64,000 nt of DNA. Origin: Minisyncoccota bacterium (GTDB taxonomy: Bacteria > Patescibacteriota > Minisyncoccia > Phycocordibacterales > Phycocordibacteraceae). Below the pieces are notes generated by a model, which worked only from the letters and a program-made list of their open reading frames with translations, had not been told where the DNA came from and did no database searches. The stretch covers positions 85,864 to 149,863 of the forward strand of contig DASPLK010000002.1 of the NCBI GenBank assembly GCA_035627595.1. The letters are read 5' to 3'. Below are positions 1,388 to 37,449 of this stretch, one piece after another (positions within the stretch are counted from its first letter, which is position 1; every line of letters starts with the position of its first letter). A program made the position numbers and the translations under genes.

Positions 1388-1456
1388 AGCTTCATGATAG
1401 CAAAGCATACTAGGTATGAATGGCGCATTATGAAGAGCATTTGTTACACTAGGCAC

Positions 1457-2011
1457 ATGGCATACGACTTTCAGAAACTCAAAGACGGCATCAAAGAGAA
1501 CGAAGAGTGGCTCACGCGTGAGCTTTCCGGCGTCAGAACCGGACGGGCTACTCCGACGCTACTTGATAACGTAAAGCCGGATATATACGGCGCACGCACT
1601 CCTATTACCAATGTCGCCTCGGTTACCATCGAGGACGCGCGCACTTTGCGCATCGTTCCGTGGGACAAGTCGGTCGTAAAGTCGATCGAAAAGGGTATTA
1701 CGGAAGCAGATCTTGGCATCTCGGTCGCTGTAGATGATATGGGCCTTCGCGTCATCTTTCCGGAGTTAACCGCCGAGCGCAGGCAGCAGCTCGCAAAACT
1801 TGCCGGAGAAAAGACAGAGCACGCTAAAGTTACTCTCCGTGGATTGAGGAACGAGGCCATCAAGGATCTCGAAGCGGCGGAGAAAGAGGGCGGCATGAGC
1901 AAGGACGAGCTGTTCCGTCTGAAGGAGGATCTTCAGAAGATGATCGACGCTGCGAACATGCAGCTCGAGGCTATCACCAAGAAGAAGCAGGACGAGATCA
2001 CCACCCTCTAG
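1457..2011 (+). CDS. frr: ribosome recycling factor
   Basis: 185 aa from ATG 1457; MAYDFQKLKDG...LTAERRQQLAKLA... is a typical RRF sequence. Confidence 0.9.
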   Translation: MAYDFQKLKDGIKENEEWLTRELSGVRTGRATPTLLDNVKPDIYGARTPITNVASVTIEDARTLRIVPWDKSVVKSIEKGITEADLGISVAVDDMGLRVIFPELTAERRQQLAKLAGEKTEHAKVTLRGLRNEAIKDLEAAEKEGGMSKDELFRLKEDLQKMIDAANMQLEAITKKKQDEITTL

Positions 2012-2014
2012 TAC

Positions 2015-3121
2015 ATGGTATCCGCCATCATAATTTTCATTATCGTACTCGTTGCGCTCATCGTAGTGCATGAGTTCGGTCACTTCGTCGCCGCAAAGCT
2101 CTCGGGCATGCGTGTTGATGAGTTCGGTATCGGATACCCGCCCAAGGCAGCAGGCCGGAAGTGGCACGGGACCGAGTACACCCTTAACTGGCTTCCGTTT
2201 GGTGGCTTTGTCCGCATATACGGCGAGGACCAGCAGGCGGTCGATGAAGACCCTCAGGACGCAGAGCGTGCGTTCTTCAAGAAACCCCGCATCCTTCAGG
2301 CACTGGTGCTTGGGGCAGGCATCCTCATGAATCTCTTGTTCGCATGGCTCCTCCTTTCTCTAACCCTCGGCCTTGGCGCTACGCGAGCGCTTGAAGAGAG
2401 CGAGATTGGAAACGCCAATGACCCGTATGTTCTCGTCTCGAGTGTGATGCCCGGGTCTCCGGCTGAGGAAGCAGGCTTTATGCCGGGTGACCGCATCGTG
2501 CGCGCTACTGCCGGCGCTGATCTATTCCTAAGCGCGAGTGCAGATGAATTCACCTCATTTGTTTCAGGAGAGACCGATCCAATAACGTTTGTCGTCGAGA
2601 ACCAGGATGCGGAACGCACGCTTACGGCAACGCCACGCGCAGGGCTCTCGCCCGAGGATCCTGAGCGCAAAGTACTCGGTGTCGGTGTAGCTTCGGTCGG
2701 AATTGTAAAGACGCCGTGGCACGTGGCGCCTGTCGAAGGCCTCACGCTCACCTGGGAGCTTACGAAAGCAACCGCAGTCGGCCTCGTTCAGTTCTTCGGT
2801 AGTATCTTCACGCTCTCCGCCGATCTGTCGCAAGTTTCAGGACCGGTTGGCATAGCAGGGGCGGTGGGGGATGCTGCGGGAACGGGACTATCCGAGCTCC
2901 TGACGCTTACAGCGATTATCTCAATAAATCTTGCGCTCATTAACCTGCTGCCGATACCGGCTCTGGACGGCGGACGACTTCTTTTTGTCGCCATTGAGGC
3001 GGTCATTAGGCGCCCCTTACCACGGAAGTTCCAGGCTTGGGTGAATGCTGCCGGATTCGCGTTCCTCATCTTGCTCATGATCGTCGTGACCGCAAGCGAT
3101 CTGTTCAAGATCGCAGGCTAG
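2015..3121 (+). CDS. rseP: RseP-like site-2 protease (M50 zinc metalloprotease with PDZ domain)
   Basis: HEFGHF zinc motif, an internal PDZ-like segment, and a C-terminal LLPIPALDGG motif; 4 nt after frr. Confidence 0.85.
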   Translation: MVSAIIIFIIVLVALIVVHEFGHFVAAKLSGMRVDEFGIGYPPKAAGRKWHGTEYTLNWLPFGGFVRIYGEDQQAVDEDPQDAERAFFKKPRILQALVLGAGILMNLLFAWLLLSLTLGLGATRALEESEIGNANDPYVLVSSVMPGSPAEEAGFMPGDRIVRATAGADLFLSASADEFTSFVSGETDPITFVVENQDAERTLTATPRAGLSPEDPERKVLGVGVASVGIVKTPWHVAPVEGLTLTWELTKATAVGLVQFFGSIFTLSADLSQVSGPVGIAGAVGDAAGTGLSELLTLTAIISINLALINLLPIPALDGGRLLFVAIEAVIRRPLPRKFQAWVNAAGFAFLILLMIVVTASDLFKIAG

Positions 3122-3129
3122 AAAACGAA

Positions 3130-3157
3130 GACGCCGTGTCCCGAAGGACACGGCGTC
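3130..3157. terminator. bidirectional hairpin between convergent rseP and gmk
   Basis: GACGCCGTGTCC-cgaa-GGACACGGCGTC perfect 12-bp stem. Confidence 0.55.
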
Positions 3158-3162
3158 GGCCG

Positions 3163-3750
3163 TTACAGGCCGCAAAGTTTGTCGTTGACCGCAGCGACTA
3201 CTTGCGGGAGGTCTTCAAGCGTCTTGCCGCCCGGGATGAAATGGAATGCCTCGGAAGAGGCTCCAATTTCTTCCGGCCAGGTACGCTCGAGCGACATCCG
3301 CTCATCAATGCCTACAGCTGATTCTCCGCGGCGAAGGAGCCGCTCGCGCAGCACCGCTTCGCCTGGGGACTCGAGATAGATCGAGACCACGGGCACCGTA
3401 AGGCCGTACTGTCCGCGGATGAACTCAGCAAGCTCGTGCACTTTGCTCGGCACCAAGATCATGATGCCGATGCCGCGCGGTTTGTCGCAGACATCGAACA
3501 CAGCGTTGCGGTCGGTGCCGTAGCTGACGTCGCCACGACTGACATGCCAGAGGAAGAACTGGGCGCGCACGAAGCGCTCAAAGTCTTCTTTGCTCACATA
3601 CTCGTACTCGCCCGGCAGGTCGCTCTCGCGCCTGCAGCGCGTCGTGACGCTCTGTATCATTCGAACGTCGGATCGTTGTCGCAAGAGTTCTCCTGCGAGG
3701 GTGGTCTTGCCGGAACCGGACATTCCGGTCAGCGTCAGTATGGCGGACAT
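3163..3750 (-). CDS. gmk: guanylate kinase
   Basis: P-loop GMSGSGKTT, and TTRxxR...YEYVSKEDF...VSYGT matches the guanylate kinase pattern. Start taken at M15 of the ORF. Confidence 0.7.
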   Translation of the reverse strand: MSAILTLTGMSGSGKTTLAGELLRQRSDVRMIQSVTTRCRRESDLPGEYEYVSKEDFERFVRAQFFLWHVSRGDVSYGTDRNAVFDVCDKPRGIGIMILVPSKVHELAEFIRGQYGLTVPVVSIYLESPGEAVLRERLLRRGESAVGIDERMSLERTWPEEIGASSEAFHFIPGGKTLEDLPQVVAAVNDKLCGL

Positions 3751-3857
3751 GGGAAACGCTCCAGTTGTTGCTCCGGTATCATTTAAGTACATCCAGAAGG
3801 AGTGTCAAATACTGGTGTTTTGCTCCTATAGGAACAACCTCGTATACTAGGGAATAC

Positions 3858-5102
3858 ATGCGCCAGTCAGCACTCTTCACCCGCACCCGCCGCGACGCGC
3901 CGTCTGATGAGACCGCGAAGAACGCGCAGCTCCTTATCCGCGCAGGATATGTGCATAAGGAAATGGCTGGTGTCTACTCCTATCTTCCCCTTGGCACACG
4001 CGTGCTGCAGAACATTGAGAATATTGTGCGCTCGGCGATGAACTTTGTTGATGGTCAAGAAATCCGTATGGCGACGCTGCATCCGTCTGAGCCGTGGAAA
4101 CAGACTGGGGGGTGGGACAACATTGACGTCTTGTTCAAGATCAATAGCCGAACCGAGCGGGAGTACGCACTCGGTCAGAGCGAGGAAGAGATTGTCACGC
4201 CAATCGGAAAAGAATATGCGGTCTCCTACAAGGACCTGCCGATGTCTGTCTATCAGATAGGACAGAAATATCGTGATGAGCTCCGCGCCAAGTCCGGCAT
4301 TATGCGCGGACGCGAGTTCACAATGAAGGACATGTATTCCTTTCACGCCACTCAGGAGGATTTCGATACGTACTACGAGCGCGTAAAGGAGATATATCTT
4401 CAGATCTTCTCCCTTTGCGGACTTACTGCGCGCGTGACAGAAGCGTCAGGCGGAAGCTTCACGGAGAAGCTTTCCTACGAATTCATGGTCCTTACCGATG
4501 CGGGTGAGGACGATATCCTGTACTGCACCGAGTGCACGCACTGCGTTAACGTTGAAGTTGCCAAGGACAAAGAGGGTGATACCTGTATGAAGTGCGAGAA
4601 GGGAACAATGCAGGCGGCCAAGGCGGCTGAGGTCGCTAACGTATTTGATCTCGGACAGAAGTACGCCAAGGACTTCGACTTCACTTTCAAGGATGCAGAG
4701 GGCAATGACCAGTATCCAATCATGGGTTGCTACGGCATTGGCATTACGCGCCTTATGGGCGTCATCGCAGAGGCGCTTTCGGACGACAAGGGTCTTGTCT
4801 GGCCGCACACGGTCGCTCCTTTTAAGTTCCATCTCGTATCGCTTGCGGGCGGTAATAAGGAGGTCGAGGAATACGCTGAAAAGTTGTACGAGGACATATC
4901 AAAACTTGGCGTACCGGTACTCTATGACGATCGTGAGCTTCATGCAGGCGAGAAGTTTGCAGACGCAGACCTCATCGGCATCCCAGTAAAAATAATCGTT
5001 GGAAAGAAGACGCTCGAGAGCGGACAGCTTGAGATCGTTGCGCGTGGAAGCGGCAAGGTCGATATGGTATCCCGCGAGCAGTTCTTCGGAACTGAAGCAT
5101 AG
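3858..5102 (+). CDS. proS: prolyl-tRNA synthetase (short form, no editing insertion)
   Basis: LLIRAGYV...LPLGTRVLQNIENIVR N-terminal ProRS signature; class II motifs; a Cys-rich insert (CTECTHC...CMKC). Confidence 0.85.
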   Translation: MRQSALFTRTRRDAPSDETAKNAQLLIRAGYVHKEMAGVYSYLPLGTRVLQNIENIVRSAMNFVDGQEIRMATLHPSEPWKQTGGWDNIDVLFKINSRTEREYALGQSEEEIVTPIGKEYAVSYKDLPMSVYQIGQKYRDELRAKSGIMRGREFTMKDMYSFHATQEDFDTYYERVKEIYLQIFSLCGLTARVTEASGGSFTEKLSYEFMVLTDAGEDDILYCTECTHCVNVEVAKDKEGDTCMKCEKGTMQAAKAAEVANVFDLGQKYAKDFDFTFKDAEGNDQYPIMGCYGIGITRLMGVIAEALSDDKGLVWPHTVAPFKFHLVSLAGGNKEVEEYAEKLYEDISKLGVPVLYDDRELHAGEKFADADLIGIPVKIIVGKKTLESGQLEIVARGSGKVDMVSREQFFGTEA

Positions 5103-5104
5103 GT

Positions 5105-6160
5105 ATGGTAAAGAAAGTACGCGGCAACTCTCTCTTCTCAAGCGATATCGGTATCGATCTCGGTACCGCAAACACGCTCGTGTACGTGCGTGGCAAAGGT
5201 ATTGTAATGAATGAGCCGTCGGTTGTGGCAGTTAACGATAAGACTGGTCAGGTGGTTGCGGTTGGAAAGGAAGCGAAGGTCATGCTCGGCAAGACTCCGC
5301 CGCATATCCGCGCGGTGCGCCCCCTTAGCCATGGCGTCATCTCCGACTTCGAGGTGACCCAGGAGCTTCTTGGTTATCTCATCACTAAGGCCTCAGGCGG
5401 CCGCGCGCGCCTATTTGGCCCGCGTGTTGTTGTTGGCGTTCCGACCGGCGTCACGAACGTTGAGAGTAGGGCAGTGAGGGACGCGGCGATGACTGCAGGT
5501 GCACGTGAGGTCTATATCATCGAGGAGCCGACCGCAGGGGCGATTGGCGCAAAGCTGCCTATCACAGCGGCGCAGGGCACGATGGTGCTCGATATCGGCG
5601 GCGGTACGACCGATATCGCGGTGCTCGCGCTCGGCGGTACGGTTGCCTCTAAGAGCTCGCAGGTAGCGGGCGACCGGTTCAATGAGAACATCATCGATTA
5701 CGTGCGTAGTGAGTTTCAGCTTGCGATCGGCGAGCGCACCGCCGAAGATGTAAAAATAGACATCGGTGCGGTACTTCCGCTGGATGAGCCTATGGAGAAG
5801 GCGATACGCGGTAGGGATCTCGCTACGGGTTTGCCGCGCGAGATTATCCTTACCGATACCCATGTGCGGGAGGCTCTCGCCGCATCCCTGGACTCATTGA
5901 TGGAGGCAATGAAAGAGGTTATCGAGAAAACGCCGCCCGAGCTTCTTTCAGATGTGCTCGAGCATGGCGTGACGGTATTCGGAGGCGGCGCACAGCTGCG
6001 GGGTCTTCCAGAACTTCTGGCCAAGATGCTTGGGGTCCCGGTCCATGTCGCCTCCGATCCTTTGACGGCGGTTGTGCGCGGTACGGGCATTGTGACCGAG
6101 GACCCGCGTGCTTGGGGCGAAATATTCATGCATGAAGAGGCAATTCTCACGAAGCGGTAG
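5105..6160 (+). CDS. mreB: rod shape-determining protein MreB
   Basis: DLGTANTLVY...GGGTTDIAVL actin-like ATPase motifs. Confidence 0.9.
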   Translation: MVKKVRGNSLFSSDIGIDLGTANTLVYVRGKGIVMNEPSVVAVNDKTGQVVAVGKEAKVMLGKTPPHIRAVRPLSHGVISDFEVTQELLGYLITKASGGRARLFGPRVVVGVPTGVTNVESRAVRDAAMTAGAREVYIIEEPTAGAIGAKLPITAAQGTMVLDIGGGTTDIAVLALGGTVASKSSQVAGDRFNENIIDYVRSEFQLAIGERTAEDVKIDIGAVLPLDEPMEKAIRGRDLATGLPREIILTDTHVREALAASLDSLMEAMKEVIEKTPPELLSDVLEHGVTVFGGGAQLRGLPELLAKMLGVPVHVASDPLTAVVRGTGIVTEDPRAWGEIFMHEEAILTKR

Positions 6161-6890
6161 CAGAGGACTTTTGTCCGGAGGACGCATACCGGCGCTCGTC
6201 GTCGCGGTAGTGCTCGTTGTACTTCTTATCCTTGGGCTCGTATTTCCGGCAGCACTCGTTTCCTTTGCGCGTCCGTTGTGGTCTGCGGGCACGGGGATCA
6301 CTGCCGCGGTCGGTAATGTCATGCCCGAGAATCCGACAGCTCTCAAAGAGGAGCGCGACCGTCTCGAGGCGGAACTTACAGCGCGTTCGAACGAGCTCTA
6401 TGCACTACAGGCGCAGACTGATGATTTAGCGCGCCTTGGCGATACGGAGGACCGCATCATTGCAGGCGTGCTCGCGCGCCCACCCATGTCTCCGTACGAC
6501 ACACTTATCGTAGAGCCTGAAGCCCCTGTGCGTGAGGGAGCGCAGACCTACGGAATTGGGGGAGCACCCATCGGTACTGTTTCGCGTGCTGACGTGGGTA
6601 GTGCTCACATATCGTTCTATTCGACAGCGGGGCGCTCGACCTTAGGCTGGGCGGGAGAGGCGCGCATACCGGTCGAACTAATTGGAGTTGGCAGCGGCGC
6701 GTTTCGAGTAATGGTCACTAAGGACGCGGGCATCGTAGTGGGTGATCTCGTGTACGTGCCAGGGCCGGGCGCGCTCCCGATCGGCAGCGTCGCACGTATC
6801 GACACAAATCCATCGTCCCCTTCATCGACCCTTTTCATACGTCCGCTCGTAAGTCCCTTCTCGCTCACGTGGGTTTCCATTGAGCGCTAG
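6132..6890 (+). CDS. mreC: rod shape-determining protein MreC
   Basis: N-terminal TM, coiled coil (ERDRLEAELTARSNELYALQ), then a beta-rich domain; sits between mreB and mreD. Start uncertain (overlaps the mreB 3' end). Confidence 0.6.
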   Translation: MKRQFSRSGSRGLLSGGRIPALVVAVVLVVLLILGLVFPAALVSFARPLWSAGTGITAAVGNVMPENPTALKEERDRLEAELTARSNELYALQAQTDDLARLGDTEDRIIAGVLARPPMSPYDTLIVEPEAPVREGAQTYGIGGAPIGTVSRADVGSAHISFYSTAGRSTLGWAGEARIPVELIGVGSGAFRVMVTKDAGIVVGDLVYVPGPGALPIGSVARIDTNPSSPSSTLFIRPLVSPFSLTWVSIER

Positions 6891-6898
6891 CAAGCAGC

Positions 6899-7144
6899 AT
6901 GGTACGCGCGATACTCATCATCCTCGCCATGGTAGCGCCCTTCACCATGCCTTGGGCGTATGCGGTACTGCTAGGTCTCATAGCGTCCTATTTCTTTCCG
7001 CCTACAGCATTAGTCATGGGTACTCTGTTTGAGGTTCTCTACGGACAGGGTACGGTACCGTACGCGTTCTTTATAGGAGCTGTTATCTTCACGCTCATGC
7101 TCGGCGTGCGCCGTTTTGTGAAGACGCGTATCATGGACGCATGA
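6899..7144 (+). CDS. mreD: MreD-like small polytopic membrane protein
   Basis: 81 aa, all hydrophobic, in the canonical mreC-mreD-pbp2 position. Confidence 0.45.
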   Translation: MVRAILIILAMVAPFTMPWAYAVLLGLIASYFFPPTALVMGTLFEVLYGQGTVPYAFFIGAVIFTLMLGVRRFVKTRIMDA

Positions 7145-8820
7145 GATGGGGTAAGCGCAGGAAGCGTGCGCTGGAGCTCGCGCCGGACGAGATATTCCTC
7201 GATTCCTATAACATTCCCGACTTCGATCAGGGACGCCTTGAGGGACGCCTCGAGAAGCCGCTGCCAGAACGCGTATACCTTGGCCTTTTAGGTGCAGTCG
7301 CGCTTATATTCGTCGCTTTGGTCACGCAGGCGGCAAACCTCGGCATCATACAGGGTGAGAAATATGCTGCGCAGAGCGAGCGCAACCGTCTGCGGCCAGA
7401 AGTCCTCTTTGCAGAGCGCGGCGCAATAGTCGACAGAAACGGGGTACCGCTTGTTGAGAATGAGCCAGGAGCGGACGGATACCCGGATCGCAACTATCGC
7501 GCTCCAGGTTTCTCGCTTCTCCTAGGCTACGTCTCATACCCGAAGAAGGATAAGTCGGGCTTCTACTACGATACTGAAATCAAGGGACTTGCAGGTGCTG
7601 AGCTTCAGTTTGAGGAGCGACTGAAGGGACAGAACGGAACGCTTCTAGTCGAGGAGAATGCGCTCGGTCAGATACAGTCGCAGGGAAGCGTTCGCCAGCC
7701 AGTGCCGGGAGAGACGGTATCACTAGCAATAGATTATCGAGCGCAGGAAGCGCTTTATGATGCGGTGAAAGAGGTTGCCGACATGATCCCGTACCAGGGC
7801 GGCGCAGCGGTCCTTATGGACGTCACGACCGGAGAGGTACACGCCCTGGTGTCATATCCAGAATATGACTCGAATGTACTTTCCAAGGGTCAGCCGGCCG
7901 ATCTTATCGAGGGATACCTGTCTGACTTCCGTCAGCCGTACCTGAATCGACCAGTCGCAGGTCTATATACCCCAGGATCCATCGTGAAGCCCGTGGTCGC
8001 TGCAGGGGCGCATCACGATGGTGTCATAGCTGCCGCAACGGCAATCGTCTCTACGGGATCTATTTCCATACCAAACCCATACAATCCGTCCAACCCGACC
8101 ATCTTCCGTGATTGGAAGGCACACGGTGCAACCGACATGCGTCAATCGATCGCGGTCTCCTCGGATGTGTATTTCTATACGATCGGTGGTGGCTTTAACG
8201 GACAGAAGGGGCTTGGCATAGAGCGGCTTGCATTCTGGTACCGTGCGTTTGGCTATACAGATCCGACGGGCATCGATCTCTCGGGTGAGAAGTCTGGCTT
8301 CGTACCAACTCCAGCGTGGAAAGAGGAGACTTATGATGAGCCGTGGCGCATCGGCAATACCTTCCACACCGCGATCGGGCAGTACGCGATGCAGGTGACG
8401 CCGCTAGAGGCGGTACGTGCGACCGCTGCAATCGCGAACGGCGGCAAGCTTGTCGTTCCCACGATAGAGAAGGGAAAACCGATACAAGGACATTCGATTG
8501 CCATTAATCCTGAAGCGCTCCGTGTTGTGCGTGAGGGTATGCGCCTCAGTGTCACCGAAGGAACAGCGCTCGGTCTCAATGATCTTTCATATATGAAGGC
8601 TGCTGGAAAGACGGGAACCGCGCAGCTCGGCGCTAACAATGAGTGGTACAACACATGGCTAGTAGGCTTCTTCCCGTACGACAATCCAAAGTACGCCTTT
8701 GCCGTGGTTATGGAGCGCGCCCCGGCAGGCACTGCCATTGGCGGCGTATACGTTGCGCACAAAGCATTCTCTAAGCTCCGCCAGACGGCCCCAGAGTACT
8801 TCGGATTATCCGCAGATTGA
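7141..8820 (+). CDS. mrdA: penicillin-binding protein 2 (peptidoglycan D,D-transpeptidase)
   Basis: SxxK (GSIVKP), SxN (SSD) and KTG (KTGTAQ) motifs; N-terminal TM. Confidence 0.85.
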   Translation: MRWGKRRKRALELAPDEIFLDSYNIPDFDQGRLEGRLEKPLPERVYLGLLGAVALIFVALVTQAANLGIIQGEKYAAQSERNRLRPEVLFAERGAIVDRNGVPLVENEPGADGYPDRNYRAPGFSLLLGYVSYPKKDKSGFYYDTEIKGLAGAELQFEERLKGQNGTLLVEENALGQIQSQGSVRQPVPGETVSLAIDYRAQEALYDAVKEVADMIPYQGGAAVLMDVTTGEVHALVSYPEYDSNVLSKGQPADLIEGYLSDFRQPYLNRPVAGLYTPGSIVKPVVAAGAHHDGVIAAATAIVSTGSISIPNPYNPSNPTIFRDWKAHGATDMRQSIAVSSDVYFYTIGGGFNGQKGLGIERLAFWYRAFGYTDPTGIDLSGEKSGFVPTPAWKEETYDEPWRIGNTFHTAIGQYAMQVTPLEAVRATAAIANGGKLVVPTIEKGKPIQGHSIAINPEALRVVREGMRLSVTEGTALGLNDLSYMKAAGKTGTAQLGANNEWYNTWLVGFFPYDNPKYAFAVVMERAPAGTAIGGVYVAHKAFSKLRQTAPEYFGLSAD

Positions 8821-8869: not shown

Positions 8870-9343
8870 ATGATGACCGAGCAGGAAACAATGGTGAGCC
8901 AGGAGAAGTTCGACGAGATGGTGAAGGAACTCGAGAACTTAAAGACGGTTCGCCGCACCGAGATCGCTAAGAATCTCGAATACGCACGTTCGCTCGGCGA
9001 TCTCTCCGAGAACGCAGAGTACCAGGAAGCACGCGAACTTCAGGCAGCCACCGAAGAGCGTATCAGGAAGCTTGAGGAGCTCGTTAAGCGTGCCAAGATC
9101 GTAACCGATGGCAAGAAGAAGGACATCGTTGGCTTCGGTTCCAAAGTCACCATCAAGCGCGATGGAACATCTGAGCCGCATGAGTACACCATCGTTGGAA
9201 GCGAGGAGGCAGATATGCGTGAGCGCAAGCTCTCTCATGTGTCGCCACTTGGCGCAGCACTCATGGGCAAGAAGAAGGGGGAAGTGTTCACCTTCGAGAC
9301 CCCAGGCGGCAAGCAAACCTACGCCATCGAAAAGGTATCCTAG
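8870..9343 (+). CDS. greA: transcription elongation factor GreA
   Basis: LSENAEYQEARE...IVG...GKKKGE signature; start at the ATG pair 8870/8873. Confidence 0.85.
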   Translation: MMTEQETMVSQEKFDEMVKELENLKTVRRTEIAKNLEYARSLGDLSENAEYQEARELQAATEERIRKLEELVKRAKIVTDGKKKDIVGFGSKVTIKRDGTSEPHEYTIVGSEEADMRERKLSHVSPLGAALMGKKKGEVFTFETPGGKQTYAIEKVS

Positions 9344-34275: not shown

Positions 34276-35075
34276 ATACCACACAGGGGCCGATCCCAGC
34301 AGACGCATCTACCGTTCCAAGCGTCGAACCATTGCGCGAGCTTCCGGAAGTTCCTGAAAAGCACCATGCCATGAGCCAGGTGCTTCAACAGGCGATTGCA
34401 GAAGGGAAACATGAGGTGCCGGAAAGTCCTGCGCCTTTGGTTTGCAAACCTCGCGAGCTTGAGAGCTGGAGGGTATTTAAGATCATGTCAGAGTTCGTTG
34501 AAGGGTTCGACCTTATTAAGAAGTATGGTCTCGCTGCGTCCATTTTTGGTACTGCGCGCCAGAGCTTTGATGATCAGGTATATAAGGATGCGGAGGAGCT
34601 TGCGGGACGTCTTGCAAAGCACGGTTTTGCAATCATTACAGGCGGCTCTGCTGGCATCATGGAAGCGGCTAACAAGGGGGCGTATGAAGCAGGTGGCGCA
34701 TCCATCGGCCTCAACATCGAGCTTCCTATGGAGCAGCACACTAACCACTACACGACCGAAGCAATGAGCTTTGACCACTTCTTCGTAAGGAAGGTCATGC
34801 TCACATTCGCGTCCGAGGTCTACATTTATTTCCCGGGAGGCTTCGGCACCTTGGATGAGTTCACAGAGATAGCGACTCTTGTTCAGACCAGGAAAATCCG
34901 CAAGGTACCGATCGTTCTCTACGGCAAGGAGTACTGGGAGCCATTCACGAAGATCTTCGAAGAGCGGCTCCTTAAGGAATACAACGCAATCGATGCGGCT
35001 GACCTTGATCTCTACAGAGTCGTCGATTCAGTGGACGAGGCGTTCGAGTACATTGTTGCCAACGTCAGGTGCTAG
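34260..35075 (+). CDS. LOG family protein (TIGR00730 Rossmann fold; cytokinin riboside 5'-monophosphate phosphoribohydrolase-like)
   Basis: GGSAGIMEAANKGA...PGGFGTLDEFTE is the LOG family signature. Confidence 0.8.
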   Translation: MADKLDTTQGPIPADASTVPSVEPLRELPEVPEKHHAMSQVLQQAIAEGKHEVPESPAPLVCKPRELESWRVFKIMSEFVEGFDLIKKYGLAASIFGTARQSFDDQVYKDAEELAGRLAKHGFAIITGGSAGIMEAANKGAYEAGGASIGLNIELPMEQHTNHYTTEAMSFDHFFVRKVMLTFASEVYIYFPGGFGTLDEFTEIATLVQTRKIRKVPIVLYGKEYWEPFTKIFEERLLKEYNAIDAADLDLYRVVDSVDEAFEYIVANVRC

Positions 35076-35100
35076 AGTCACCAAGAAAGCAAAGAAGAAT

Positions 35101-35135
35101 GGGCTGCCCGTACGGGCAGCCCATCTGCATTCATT
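35101..35135 (+). terminator. terminator after the LOG gene
   Basis: GGGCTGCCCG-ta-CGGGCAGCCC followed by ATCTGCATTCATTG. Confidence 0.6.
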
Positions 35136-35607
35136 GTAACGATCCTGCCGCAGGTATCGCATTCGAATCCCTGCTTCGTAGGTCGCATATCCGCTCCGCA
35201 TCGACAGCGATTGGCTGCCGCACGAAGCCAGTGAAAATGTAATCCGTGCATGGGTACAACTCCTCCTTTGACTTGCCCAAAGCCACAGTAATAGGAGTAC
35301 GTTCAAGACACAAGTTTCAGAACTCGATGGATTGAAAGAGTAGGGGAGTCGCCTTTCCCAATCCTCTAGATCAATCAGCATAAAGCACCTCCCCTGGCTC
35401 CCCCGCCACCTCTTGGGGGAAGGGGTAACTCCGCTTCCCAGCCTATACATCTTGCTGCGAAACTTCCTCGCAATCGAGCATGTCAATAATATTTTCAGAG
35501 AACGGTCGGGAAGAGAAGTGCACCTGCTAAACGATAGGAGAATAGAGTCGTATACAGCCCCAGCTTCTCTAGGTATTGTTCGCACAATATATCTTTTGCG
35601 AAATCCC

Positions 35608-35698
35608 ATAAAACCCAGTAAATAGGCTGTGGATTTGGGTCTGCTTTCCTTAAGCATGTCCTATTCCCCATTATACGGCCTATTTACTGGGTTTTGAT
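35608..35698. repeat. perfect ~20-bp inverted repeat (ATAAAACCCAGTAAATAGGC) with a 50-nt spacer
   Basis: Arms read directly from the sequence; located in a 770-bp low-GC noncoding stretch. Confidence 0.55.
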
Positions 35699-35700
35699 GA

Positions 35701-35724
35701 ACTGTCAACGCCACTGTCAACGCT
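35701..35724 (+). repeat. tandem 12-nt direct repeat ACTGTCAACGCC/ACTGTCAACGCT
   Basis: Two adjacent copies immediately 3' of the inverted repeat. Confidence 0.5.
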
Positions 35725-35843
35725 TACTTTCCCGAAATTTTGCCGGAAAAGTAGGCACTTCCCCCAACTATCAAAAATAATTAGGGAGTGGGCCGTTTTT
35801 AAGGCTTCTCGTGTGACCGAGATTTGTGCAGGAGCATATCTAT

Positions 35844-36386
35844 CTAGCCGAAATTAGCATTTAAGATCCAGCCGATTAACGCTCCAATAGGGAGCGTGGC
35901 TAGTATGGTCAATACTACTTTTACTAGACTTGGATACTTACTTAGAACTGTCTCAGTAAAGGACATTGGTTCTAAGAAGTCGTAGCCCGGCTCCCCTATC
36001 TCAAACTTACCCAGATAGCGTGGGCTCGGAACAAGGTACTTTTCCTCGATACAGTAGTTAATGAGTCTGTCTATTTGGTCCATCCGCTGCTTCGCTCGGG
36101 CAAAAGATGGTGACGACACATCCAGCTCGTCCGAGGTTGTTCTTGGATCAGGAATACGTAGAACTCTTCTAACTGTATCTCTGTAATTCTCGAGATACAT
36201 GTTCTCAAGCAGGATAGCTTGGATTCCAATAATGTTCGCACTGTTTCCTACCCATGCCCAATCTGGAACGCTATTTCGCCTAGACTTGTCTAGAATCTTT
36301 AATAGTTTCTGTGCGCGGAACTGCTTGTACATCAGGCTAATACTATCAGCTATCGCGACCCAGTATGGGTAATTTTGGTACAACAT
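35844..36386 (-). CDS. hypothetical protein with C-terminal TM helix (low GC, foreign-looking)
   Basis: 180 aa; AT-rich codon usage unlike neighbouring genes; C-terminal VVLTILATLPIGALIGWIL. Confidence 0.5.
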   Translation of the reverse strand: MLYQNYPYWVAIADSISLMYKQFRAQKLLKILDKSRRNSVPDWAWVGNSANIIGIQAILLENMYLENYRDTVRRVLRIPDPRTTSDELDVSSPSFARAKQRMDQIDRLINYCIEEKYLVPSPRYLGKFEIGEPGYDFLEPMSFTETVLSKYPSLVKVVLTILATLPIGALIGWILNANFG

Positions 36387-36392
36387 TAATGC

Positions 36393-36532
36393 TACTTGCC
36401 GTGGGTTACCTCCCGGTCTTTCAGAGATTCGCTCAGCTCACTTAAGTGACTTGAGACAAGCCGACTCAGCTCAATCAGTTCCTCCAATTCCTTCTTAATC
36501 TGATTTGCGTTCGTGATGCTACCATTCTTCAT
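36393..36532 (-). CDS. possible 46-aa coiled-coil peptide directly upstream of the 180-aa gene (coordinates approximate)
   Basis: MKNGSITNANQIKKELEELIELSRLVSSHLSELSESLKDREVTHGK; stop is 6 nt before the next ATG. No Shine-Dalgarno. Weak. Confidence 0.2.
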
Positions 36533-36569
36533 GGAGTGTAATTTTTACTAGTTACTAATCACTTCGCGC

Positions 36570-36752
36570 ATGACGATATGGCAAATCTCACCTCAGCACT
36601 TTGATACCGAGGAAGGTAGGATGAAGATCATTGAGACGATCGACACAATCCGTGGCCTACAAGGCCACATTGAGACTAAGCTACAAGCACTTCAGGATCG
36701 TGTGTACGATGATCAAGACCTACCAAGTCCTGGTATAGAGAATCCTCAATAA
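36570..36752 (+). CDS. hypothetical small protein (60 aa)
   Basis: Divergent from the minus-strand pair; followed by a strong hairpin. Confidence 0.35.
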   Translation: MTIWQISPQHFDTEEGRMKIIETIDTIRGLQGHIETKLQALQDRVYDDQDLPSPGIENPQ

Positions 36753-36770
36753 CTCTAAGAGAGGTTGAGT

Positions 36771-36812
36771 AACGAAATACGAGTTACCGAAACCGGCAAC
36801 TCGTATTTCGTT
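36771..36812 (+). terminator. 15-bp perfect-stem hairpin AACGAAATACGAGTT/AACTCGTATTTCGTT
   Basis: Seen directly, 19 nt after the stop of ORF 36570-36752. Confidence 0.55.
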
Positions 36813-37000
36813 GTCAGTTGAATCTACCTATATCTTTTGCGATAAACAATATAAAAGCTGCCGAATATATCTCTCTTCAGGCGCTGCAAGTTACAGCCCC
36901 TTCCCTCGCTGTATGGCGGCCCACCGAAGCCATTTCTTGCGTATCCGAGATTCACATTGGAGATATTATTTTTGTTCTATCAGCCAATAAATAGTAAGTA

Positions 37001-37030
37001 GAAAACCGCGTCATAAGGCGCGGCTTTCTA
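37001..37030 (-). terminator. hairpin after the minus-strand membrane-protein gene
   Basis: AAAGCCGCG-ccttatga-CGCGGTTTT on the minus strand, followed by a T-rich run. Confidence 0.4.
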
Positions 37031-37047
37031 TTTAGAGTGTCGGTTGC

Positions 37048-37449
37048 CTAAGCGGAAGGTCGTAGAAGCGGGTTGTATGATTCCCGATTCTTCCACAGAA
37101 GATAGATATTAAGGAGAAGCATTATGTTCCCCATTACTGCCCCACTCGTAAACAATCCTCCATCAAGGACGAGGTGGAACGCGACAACGTTCACCGTAAT
37201 CGGCGCAATAAGAAGCGCGGCAAGCGCTTCGCGACGGGTCCAGAGTGCAATGAGCGCGACTATGAGCACTGCCGCCATCATGTAGTTGATGTACATTATC
37301 TGGACGAGCATTTCGATGAACGCGAAGGCCTGATCGGTGTTGTAGAGGTCGCGGGTCGCCTCGCCGAGCGCACCAGTCGATCCTACGATGGGAAGCAAAA
37401 GGATAAGCGAGAGAATGGCCTTGGCACCAATGTGAATGATGTTCTTCAT
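37048..37449 (-). CDS. small polytopic membrane protein (DoxX-like, 4 TM)
   Basis: 133 aa, four hydrophobic helices. Confidence 0.5.
   Translation of the reverse strand: MKNIIHIGAKAILSLILLLPIVGSTGALGEATRDLYNTDQAFAFIEMLVQIMYINYMMAAVLIVALIALWTRREALAALLIAPITVNVVAFHLVLDGGLFTSGAVMGNIMLLLNIYLLWKNRESYNPLLRPSA

Follow-up and report, generated by a model that had tools for sequence, protein, structure and literature searches.

The locus and its counterparts in relatives

We analysed a short segment of foreign composition in a 64,000-nt stretch of a metagenome-assembled Candidatus Paceibacterota (Minisyncoccota) genome (contig DASPLK010000002.1), referred to below as the window and numbered from its first letter. 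The segment lies between the LOG gene and a minus-strand gene for a 133-aa membrane protein (37048–37449), and its core is, at a probability that we put near three in four, a small non-autonomous element inserted into a chromosomal dif site by Xer-type site-specific recombination. An earlier, sequence-only reading had marked a 2-kb island at 35076–37030, and GC content is indeed low there (0.459, compared with 0.541 for the whole window); the latter value does not bear out the ~57% given in that reading for the flanks. The GC and tetranucleotide profile that it had proposed as a check has now been run. The lowest GC in the window at that size belongs to a 1,241-bp core, 35602–36842 (0.442, z = -3.8); only 0.16% of same-size windows fall below it, every one of them overlapping the core, and its tetranucleotide deviation is near-maximal (L1 0.465, window maximum 0.466). 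Positions 35602–36842 are a compositionally foreign island. The earlier boundaries had to be redrawn, as 35076–35576 and 36843–37047 are native, and about 500 bp of what had been taken for a 770-bp non-coding opening is native spacer left of dif, outside the island. A check for tRNA-type attachment sites found no tRNA or tmRNA gene near the island.

For comparison, 80 genome and 80 metagenome loci were fetched around LOG homologues. The upstream order L27–Ada–exonuclease–LOG is kept in these loci, and the DNA downstream of LOG is variable. When the island was aligned to them by blastn, one short block, 35579–35602, proved to be shared without a mismatch by dozens of genomes with LOG proteins of just ~65% identity. 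This block falls within a 28-bp imperfect palindrome of 11-6-11 layout, TGTTCGCACAA|TATATC|TTTTGCGAAAT (35577–35604; hereafter the 28-mer, or attL for left attachment site). Its 20-nt core is present with at most three mismatches in 129 of 161 related LOG-linked Paceibacterota loci, 116 of which have it in the same orientation relative to LOG.

Part of the 28-mer recurs at the other end of the island. An exact 14-nt direct repeat, TATATCTTTTGCGA, made up of the whole centre (6 bp) and the adjoining 8 nt of the right arm, is found in the same orientation at 35588–35601 and 36829–36842, the two copies being 1,241 bp apart. The second copy is part of a hybrid site (attR, right attachment site) in which an unrelated left arm, TTGAATCTACC, precedes the centre TATATC and the right arm TTTTGCGATAA. 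This was the top half-site score in our scan, and a comparable extra half-site was seen in just one other of 71 genome loci and in the metagenome locus L165. The synteny comparison suggested by the sequence-only reading showed that the island is missing in the two closest relatives, L114 (Ga0196976_1004906; LOG 89%, exonuclease 98% and 133-aa protein 88% identical to the window) and L115 (Ga0196971_1000013; LOG 89% identical). Both carry an uninterrupted site, ...CGCACAATATATCTTTTGCGATAAA, followed by the sequence that the window has after 36842, implying that the island is an insertion into dif. Their sites read ...TTTTGCGATAAA, matching the right arm of attR: it ends in GATAA, as does the window's second copy, unlike the GAAAT of the first copy, and the outer 3 nt (AAT) of the attL right arm derive from the element. 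To the right, L114 is collinear with the window from 36843 for ~200 nt, through the terminator and into the 133-aa gene, and window 36900–36954 has a counterpart of 82% identity in L115 at 8899–8953, ~80 nt right of the L115 site. To the left, the window and L115 have in common the box GGGAAGAGAAGTGCACC and the string GGGAAGAGAAGTG(G/C)ACC. A more distant outgroup, L001/L117, likewise lacks the segment, which together with the foreign composition favours gain over loss.

The order along the chromosome is therefore native left flank, L-c-R' (attL), element, L'-c-R (attR), native right flank, where L and R are arms and c is the centre, and recombination of a dif (L-c-R) with an element site (L'-c-R') would yield exactly this. 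The empty site in relatives, the pairing of a dif with a directly oriented hybrid site that has the same centre, and the lack of an integrase among the three open reading frames (ORFs) screened are all features of integrative mobile elements exploiting Xer (IMEX). Neither uniform GC nor conservation of these ORFs at the locus in relatives, the two outcomes that the sequence-only reading had named as contradicting it, was found.

Could the segment instead be ancestral dif-flank DNA that L114 and L115 have lost, for example by Xer-mediated deletion between dif and a pseudo-site? Just three close genomes could be compared, gene content beside dif differs on both sides among relatives, and the element contains dif-flank-like boxes (AGTGGGCCG, CCGAGATT) and a reverse-oriented CTTCCC, as the native right flank does. 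We nevertheless consider such a loss improbable: L001/L117 and all other loci also lack ORF180, the island's 180-aa ORF, the composition of the segment is near the most deviant in the window, and attR joins the native right arm (GATAA) to native flank, as gain by integration predicts. Tandem duplication was rejected as an origin, since 35602–35843 and 36843–37047 have just the 14-mer and short boxes in common, and the latter, not the former, is the orthologue of the relatives' flank.

Identity of the 28-mer

A dif site spans ~28 bp, with two inverted arms of ~11 bp around a centre of 6–8 bp, and the 28-mer has this anatomy. In most of the 129 sites the arms pair at positions 3–8 and 10–11, and none is symmetric at position 9/20; no variation is seen in the core, and covariation at the outer arm position keeps the palindrome (positions 3/26: TA in 77, GC in 39). 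Scans of the 64-kb window and of 70 genome loci (~20 kb each) found a single full site in each. The left arm, GTGCGCACAA, and the layout resemble those of E. coli dif, which reads GGTGCGCATAA-TGTATA-TTATGTTAAAT. Chiefly on account of the polar motifs, recombinase genes and prophages described below, the 28-mer is very probably a Xer-type dif site, to be regarded as putative. The distance from LOG to this site varies across loci from ~13 nt to ~8 kb, and the DNA on its left is variable as well: L114 has ~2.2 kb more there (1394–3600) than the 500-bp spacer of the window.

Around dif, FtsK-orienting polar sequences (KOPS) have converging polarity (PMC5357621), and in archaea polar motifs have served to validate dif sites predicted in silico (PMC2958812). 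All k-mers were screened, without prior choice of a motif, for a strand bias that flips at the site, and AGGGAAG came first, with forward/reverse counts of 224/14 on the left and 29/228 on the right (±300 nt left out); the bias was equal in plus-strand genes, minus-strand genes and intergenic DNA. The degenerate form RGGGRAG was followed in the window (1–64000) and over ±12 kb around the 28-mer in loci L001–L080 and L114–L193. It is at least 89% forward in each 1-kb bin from -12 to -2 kb and at most 16% forward from +1 to +9 kb, and its density climbs towards the site, from ~0.7 per kb to 3.1 per kb in the last kb, about a four-fold rise (129 loci). The pattern can be seen in the window alone, where it reaches ~28 kb: 26 of 32 occurrences before 35.6 kb are forward GGGAAG, and 22 of 28 after 35.4 kb are CTTCCC. 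Gene orientation also changes over at this point: to the right of the site, 85% of coding bases lie on the minus strand. Converging polar motifs of the kind represented by KOPS and architecture-imparting sequences (AIMS) thus surround the 28-mer, and RGGGRAG is a candidate FtsK-orienting (KOPS-like) motif of Paceibacterota.

Recombinase genes were found where the site is expected in three other loci. In L165, the one examined for flanking sites, two dif-like sites downstream of the LOG region bracket a gene for a 318-aa XerC/D-family recombinase (XerC model, E = 2e-69). The xer gene of L168 (3365–4318) is near-identical to it, and that of L078 (3085–4032), directly after LOG, is 75.6% identical. 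The arrangement in L165 looks as if the xer gene were itself a cassette in dif, and recalls xerS/difSL modules. Among viral contigs, L084 has a tyrosine-recombinase match near the site.

A scan of IMG/VR for the core returned 31 contigs with GTCGCACAATATATCTTTTACGAC, mostly of 4–11 kb and 30–47% GC. Four of these were checked, and a Zot-like ATPase was present in three and a rolling-circle Rep in two (L109 has both). In seven contigs (L094, L101, L103, L107, L109, L110 and L112) a left-arm-plus-centre copy and a full site stand 5.1–5.9 kb apart. In L109, the sole one of the seven examined, the two sites (2623–8518) enclose an inovirus-like prophage with Zot, a G2P-type Rep and DUF2726, and cellular genes (DUF3048, MurG) lie outside it. 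The hosts of the site-paired prophages are low in GC (30–33% in most); the site-bearing prophage had no match among GenBank phages, and a MurG homologue search with cluster look-up gave no host name. The presence of the core in inovirus-like contigs, where it brackets Zot/Rep prophages, suggests that the site is used by classical IMEX in related or other hosts. The 28-mer is predicted to be bound and recombined by one or more Xer recombinases.

It is very improbable, in our judgement, that the 28-mer is an operator, an RNA hairpin or the attB of another recombinase, and that the 1.24 kb arrived without the help of Xer, for example through transposition that duplicated a long target or through insertion at a microhomology. 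Such a view could draw on the GC skew, which does not invert at the site, on a common G-to-A change at site position 22 that keeps a G-U pair on the minus-strand transcript only, and on the long-range complementarity of GGGAAG and CTTCCC around the site. However, a permissive Rfam scan of 34900–37200 gave junk matches only, and a scan of the window and seven related loci at gathering thresholds gave only two tRNAs, elsewhere in the window. The would-be loop is the most conserved part and the outer positions covary, as in recombinase sites, and the polarity of GGGAAG/CTTCCC can be followed for at least 10 kb to either side independently of gene strand, which argues against a local helix. Moreover, Rep/Zot prophages are bracketed by the site, a Xer gene stands beside it, and the element has neither terminal inverted repeats nor a transposase. 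A large non-coding RNA, composed of the 24-nt block and the GGGAAG/CTTCCC pairing, was rejected because the polarity, whatever the gene strand, reaches beyond 10 kb.

The surroundings of dif hold further recurrent features. At least 19 of the 129 loci have a second, inverted dif-like site 19–36 nt to the right of dif, ...CGCAAAAGAT-N8-10-ATTGTGCG (for example L073 11039–11125 and L065 10976–11050), and its outer arm covaries with the dif right arm such that both form a hairpin; this could be a trace left by CTX-type (hairpin attP) elements, or the structure could be functional. In L014 a strong left-arm-plus-centre half-site, AAATCGCACAATATATCTGCTTGCGTTT, lies 3568 nt upstream of the dif of that locus. 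As it is upstream of L27–Ada–exonuclease–LOG, half-site and full dif bracket housekeeping genes. In many genomes the boxes AAGTGGGCCG and CCGAGAT (or the inverse, TCTCGG) are found 30–150 nt right of dif (L001 2097–2125; L002 4015–4043; L114 3745–3770). The window has them twice, in the element (35786–35824) and, with GGCCCAC inverted, in the native flank (36914–36952).

Contents of the element and alternative origins

The features of the locus are collected in Table 1. The hairpins at the ends of the 2-kb island of the sequence-only reading do exist, but the outer pair are the terminators of the LOG gene and of the 133-aa gene; the element's own are those directly inside attL and attR (35607–35699 and 36771–36812). 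What had been described as a perfect 20-bp inverted repeat is present in the first of these, with arms at 35610–35627 and 35678–35695 that pair perfectly over 18 nt, or over 21 nt with one mismatch, and the reported tandem 12-mer is an 11-mer, ACTGTCAACGC, repeated twice at a period of 12. The search for these two repeats elsewhere, recommended in the same reading, returned no other copy in the loci or IMG/VR, and the 35607–35699 hairpin as a whole had no further copy in 2.2 Mb of loci or in IMG/VR. The counterpart of the AGTGGGCCG and CCGAGATT boxes in L114 reads AAGTGGGCCGTTTC...CCGAGATTT.

Table 1. Features at and around the island, in window coordinates except for the last two rows
Feature	Positions	Strand	Remarks
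Native chromosomal spacer, LOG gene to dif	35076–35576	.	GC 0.511; orthologous to the site flank in relatives
LOG gene terminator hairpin	35098–35125
Forward-oriented KOPS-like boxes in left spacer	35342, 35416, 35508		AGGGGAG, GGGGAAG and GGGAAG, respectively
attL, complete dif-type site (putative)	35577–35604	+	28-mer
Inserted element, 1,241 bp (probable)	35602–36842	.	register arbitrary within the 14-nt repeat; 35588–36828 equivalent
Long hairpin immediately inside attL	35607–35699	.	93 nt; DNA fold dG -24.4 kcal/mol, z -7.7
Tandem 11-mer, iteron-like	35701–35723	+	specific to the element
AGTGGGCCG and CCGAGATT boxes	35786–35824	+	like boxes right of dif in many relatives
ORF180	35844–36386	-	helical N-terminal part, C-terminal transmembrane helix; VEA92_01480
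ORF46	36392–36532	-	small, helical, putative coding; annotated VEA92_01485; ends 5 nt upstream of ORF180 start
ORF60	36570–36752	+	divergent, small, doubtful coding status; absent from protein collection; no family matches
Hairpin immediately inside attR	36771–36812	.	19-bp stem; dG -18.7 kcal/mol, z -7.4
attR, hybrid site	36818–36845	+	unrelated left arm, centre, right arm
Native right flank of dif	36843–37047	.	collinear with L114; best flank scores against L115 and L114
Reverse-oriented KOPS-like box in right flank	36900		CTTCCC
Terminator hairpin of 133-aa gene	36999–37030
L165 site-xer-site segment	1751–2830
L165 xer gene	1817–2773	-

The three ORFs, of 180, 46 and 60 aa, are as they had been described, including the C-terminal hydrophobic helix of ORF180 (hydrophobicity peak at residues 157–175). 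NCBI annotates ORF180 as VEA92_01480, with 162 aa, and the neighbouring entries are VEA92_01485 and VEA92_01490. An exhaustive HMMER search of 1.8 billion representatives gave two weak homologues of ORF180 and a profile search one more, for a total of three (P0002, P0003 and P0134), among which P0002, from a Patescibacteria group bacterium, is the only one with a named source. P0002 and P0003 align over the hydrophobic tail of ORF180 with conserved residues in common (P0134 was left out of this alignment), and the ORF180 family thus appears real but very rare. In their own contexts (L081, L082 and L194/195) the relatives are surrounded by small ORFs, one of which, beside P0134, has a weak match to an excisionase-type helix-turn-helix (HTH) domain, HTH_17. 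Structure prediction, another of the checks that had been proposed, did not help, as the AlphaFold2 model of ORF180 (pLDDT 53) was too poor for a fold search. Neither ORF46 nor ORF60 had homologues or family matches. None of the three ORFs had a significant match in Pfam, PADLOC (0 families), PHROG, NCBIfam or the PDB; the best PHROG and Pfam E-values were 0.08–0.34, and none of these was to Zot or Rep. In agreement with the sequence-only reading, no recombinase or transposase domain was detected in ORF180, ORF46 or ORF60, the three ORFs covered by the screen. The cargo is a set of orphan ORFs with no assigned role and may be inert.

Outside the element, a 57-aa unannotated ORF with a CxC...CxxC pattern (35078–35251, minus strand) overlaps the LOG terminator and is absent from the protein collection. 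The 133-aa protein had been called DoxX-like, a label without Pfam support: no DoxX match was obtained in Pfam or NCBIfam, just weak matches to TgpA_N and DUF2569.

From the gene layout, the sequence-only reading had speculated about an abortive-infection or toxin-like function, and we considered ORF46 and ORF180 as an abortive-infection or toxin-antitoxin-like two-gene cargo module. The architecture fits: only 5 nt separate a tiny upstream ORF from the gene for a 180-aa protein with a C-terminal membrane helix; P0002 also has a small upstream ORF, though ~350 nt away, and P0134 sits amid small ORFs including the one with the weak HTH_17 match. Against this, PADLOC, Pfam, NCBIfam, PHROG and the PDB gave no matches, the structure model was unusable, and ORF46 is without homologues that would point to a conserved pairing with ORF180. 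We hold such a module to be quite unlikely.

The earlier argument that an island lacking an integrase must, if mobile, be a remnant does not follow here, since location in a dif site with a duplicated site core is the signature of an element that borrows host Xer. A decayed remnant of a larger IMEX, for example a dif-integrated inovirus-type prophage that has lost its replication and morphogenesis genes, would have used the same integration route, and this we regard as unlikely, if less so than a defence module. In IMG/VR contigs the same site flanks inovirus prophages of 5.1–5.9 kb on both sides, and the island holds small or orphan ORFs only and much non-coding DNA. Some filamentous-phage coat proteins, moreover, combine a soluble part with a C-terminal anchor, as ORF180 is predicted to do. 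However, when the island was compared with the 31 site-bearing viral contigs by tblastn and blastn, nothing but the site was alike; the three ORFs have no significant PHROG match (one reaches E 0.12); and both ends of the element have intact, very stable hairpins. The junctions differ as well. Those of the prophages retain the left arm and centre and break at one boundary of the hexamer, and the window element retains the centre and right arm, the left end of its 14-nt identity coinciding with the other boundary of the centre. An actual inovirus prophage was rejected, as none of the three ORFs matches a Zot/pI-type ATPase or a rolling-circle Rep and there is no similarity to the site-bearing contigs.

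Several results weigh against the reading of the segment as a mobile element integrated at dif by Xer. GC skew shows no inversion within ±8 kb of the site (+0.036 left, +0.033 right; 53 loci), a per-ORF skew regression gave only a small effect of side, and in the window the skew goes from +0.030 on the left to 0.000 on the right. The top strand is thus G-rich on both sides, although the polar motifs and gene orientation invert, and the GC-skew shift point expected of a replication terminus does not occur at the 28-mer within ±8 kb. The absent inversion lowers the case for a position at the replication terminus and not that for a Xer site. Neither a host xer nor an ftsK gene is found within the 64-kb window. 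As to mobility, searches of the protein collections, IMG/VR and the 194 loci returned no further copy of the ORFs, junction, hairpin or 11-mer; IMG/VR in particular lacked the hairpin arm, the tandem 11-mer and the junction predicted for a circular form; and an exact search of metagenome contigs for the window site with its left flank gave no match. With no second copy found, mobility is deduced from a single insertion. ORF180 has no close homologue among ~15 billion proteins, and no dif-like site was found beside its relatives (L081, L082, L194/195). Finally, because the AGTGGGCCG and CCGAGATT boxes of the element also occur in native dif right flanks, the segment may derive from the dif flank of another genome and not be a dedicated mobile element.

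Proposed integration by host Xer, and known systems

Altogether, the element is best read as a small, integrase-less, IMEX-like element that would exploit the host Xer system. Its circular form would have borne the attachment site TTGAATCTACC|TATATC|TTTTGCGAAAT, and one or more host Xer recombinases would have exchanged strands at the borders of the TATATC centre, so that the element, borrowing host Xer, would require no integrase of its own. Integration would have rebuilt a complete dif at attL, and dimer resolution would thereby be retained; with no recognisable left arm in attR, excision is expected to be inefficient. In the circle, the hairpins and the tandem 11-mer would flank the attachment site, and one may speculate that they form the origin or packaging region of a satellite.

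If so, the paradox of a foreign island without an integrase would be resolved through integration by the dimer-resolution machinery of the host. More than 100 Paceibacterota genomes share the candidate dif and the polar motif, which could serve to locate dif and the terminus region, to check the assembly and circularisation of metagenome-assembled genomes from the candidate phyla radiation (CPR), and to find integrated elements; the site on uncultivated inoviruses could help to link these to their hosts. As gene content differs on both sides of dif even among close relatives, dif also appears to be a hotspot of gene flux in these small genomes. In the limited library available to us, no paper was found on dif, a KOPS-like motif or IMEX in Patescibacteria, or with the site sequence. 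We tentatively suggest, as a possibility more than an expectation, that this is a first description of a Patescibacteria (CPR) Xer/dif system, with a phylum-typical dif, (A/G)NNNCGCACAATATATCTTTTGCGNNN(T/A), and the FtsK-type orienting motif RGGGRAG, and of a new miniature class of Xer-exploiting element, which in 1.24 kb would combine an attachment site, hairpin and iteron-like repeats and orphan cargo, and which may depend, as a satellite, on mobilisation by the inoviruses whose site it shares.

Among known elements, TLC-phi (4.7 kb) and the gonococcal genetic island (GGI) come closest in site structure: like the window element they lie in a chromosomal dif and lack an integrase of their own, and all have a full dif together with a direct site in which one arm and the centre are kept and the other arm is divergent. 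Unlike them, the window element measures only 1.24 kb, is without replication, transfer or Xer-activating genes, has a Patescibacteria (CPR) bacterium as its host, and conserves the arm opposite the one that resembles the XerC arm of E. coli dif, an assignment that is putative. In TLC-phi and the GGI, the latter of 57 kb, the attachment sites keep one Xer-binding arm and the centre (PMC5357621). CTX-phi and VGJ-phi are Inoviridae that use host XerCD at dif, and the core of the 28-mer is likewise carried by inovirus-like contigs; the island resembles these contigs in neither genes nor DNA, has about one fifth of their size, and carries its hybrid site on the other side of the centre.

Acinetobacter modules, most of them plasmid-borne, are enclosed by two full pdif sites that are inverted relative to each other (XerC/D-D/C), whereas the window element has one full and one half site, in direct orientation, in a chromosomal dif. 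An Acinetobacter-type dif module was therefore rejected, the two complete inverted sites being missing. What pdif/dif modules and the window element have in common is kb-sized cargo, the lack of a recombinase and Xer-type boundaries (PMC12907356, PMC11705084). Lastly, single-recombinase modules of the xerS/difSL type have the recombinase gene directly beside its dif site (PMC5357621). L165, L168 and L078, with a XerC/D-family gene at the expected site, are similar in this respect; the window differs in having no xer gene in its 64 kb and a site centre of 6 bp, not 11 bp.

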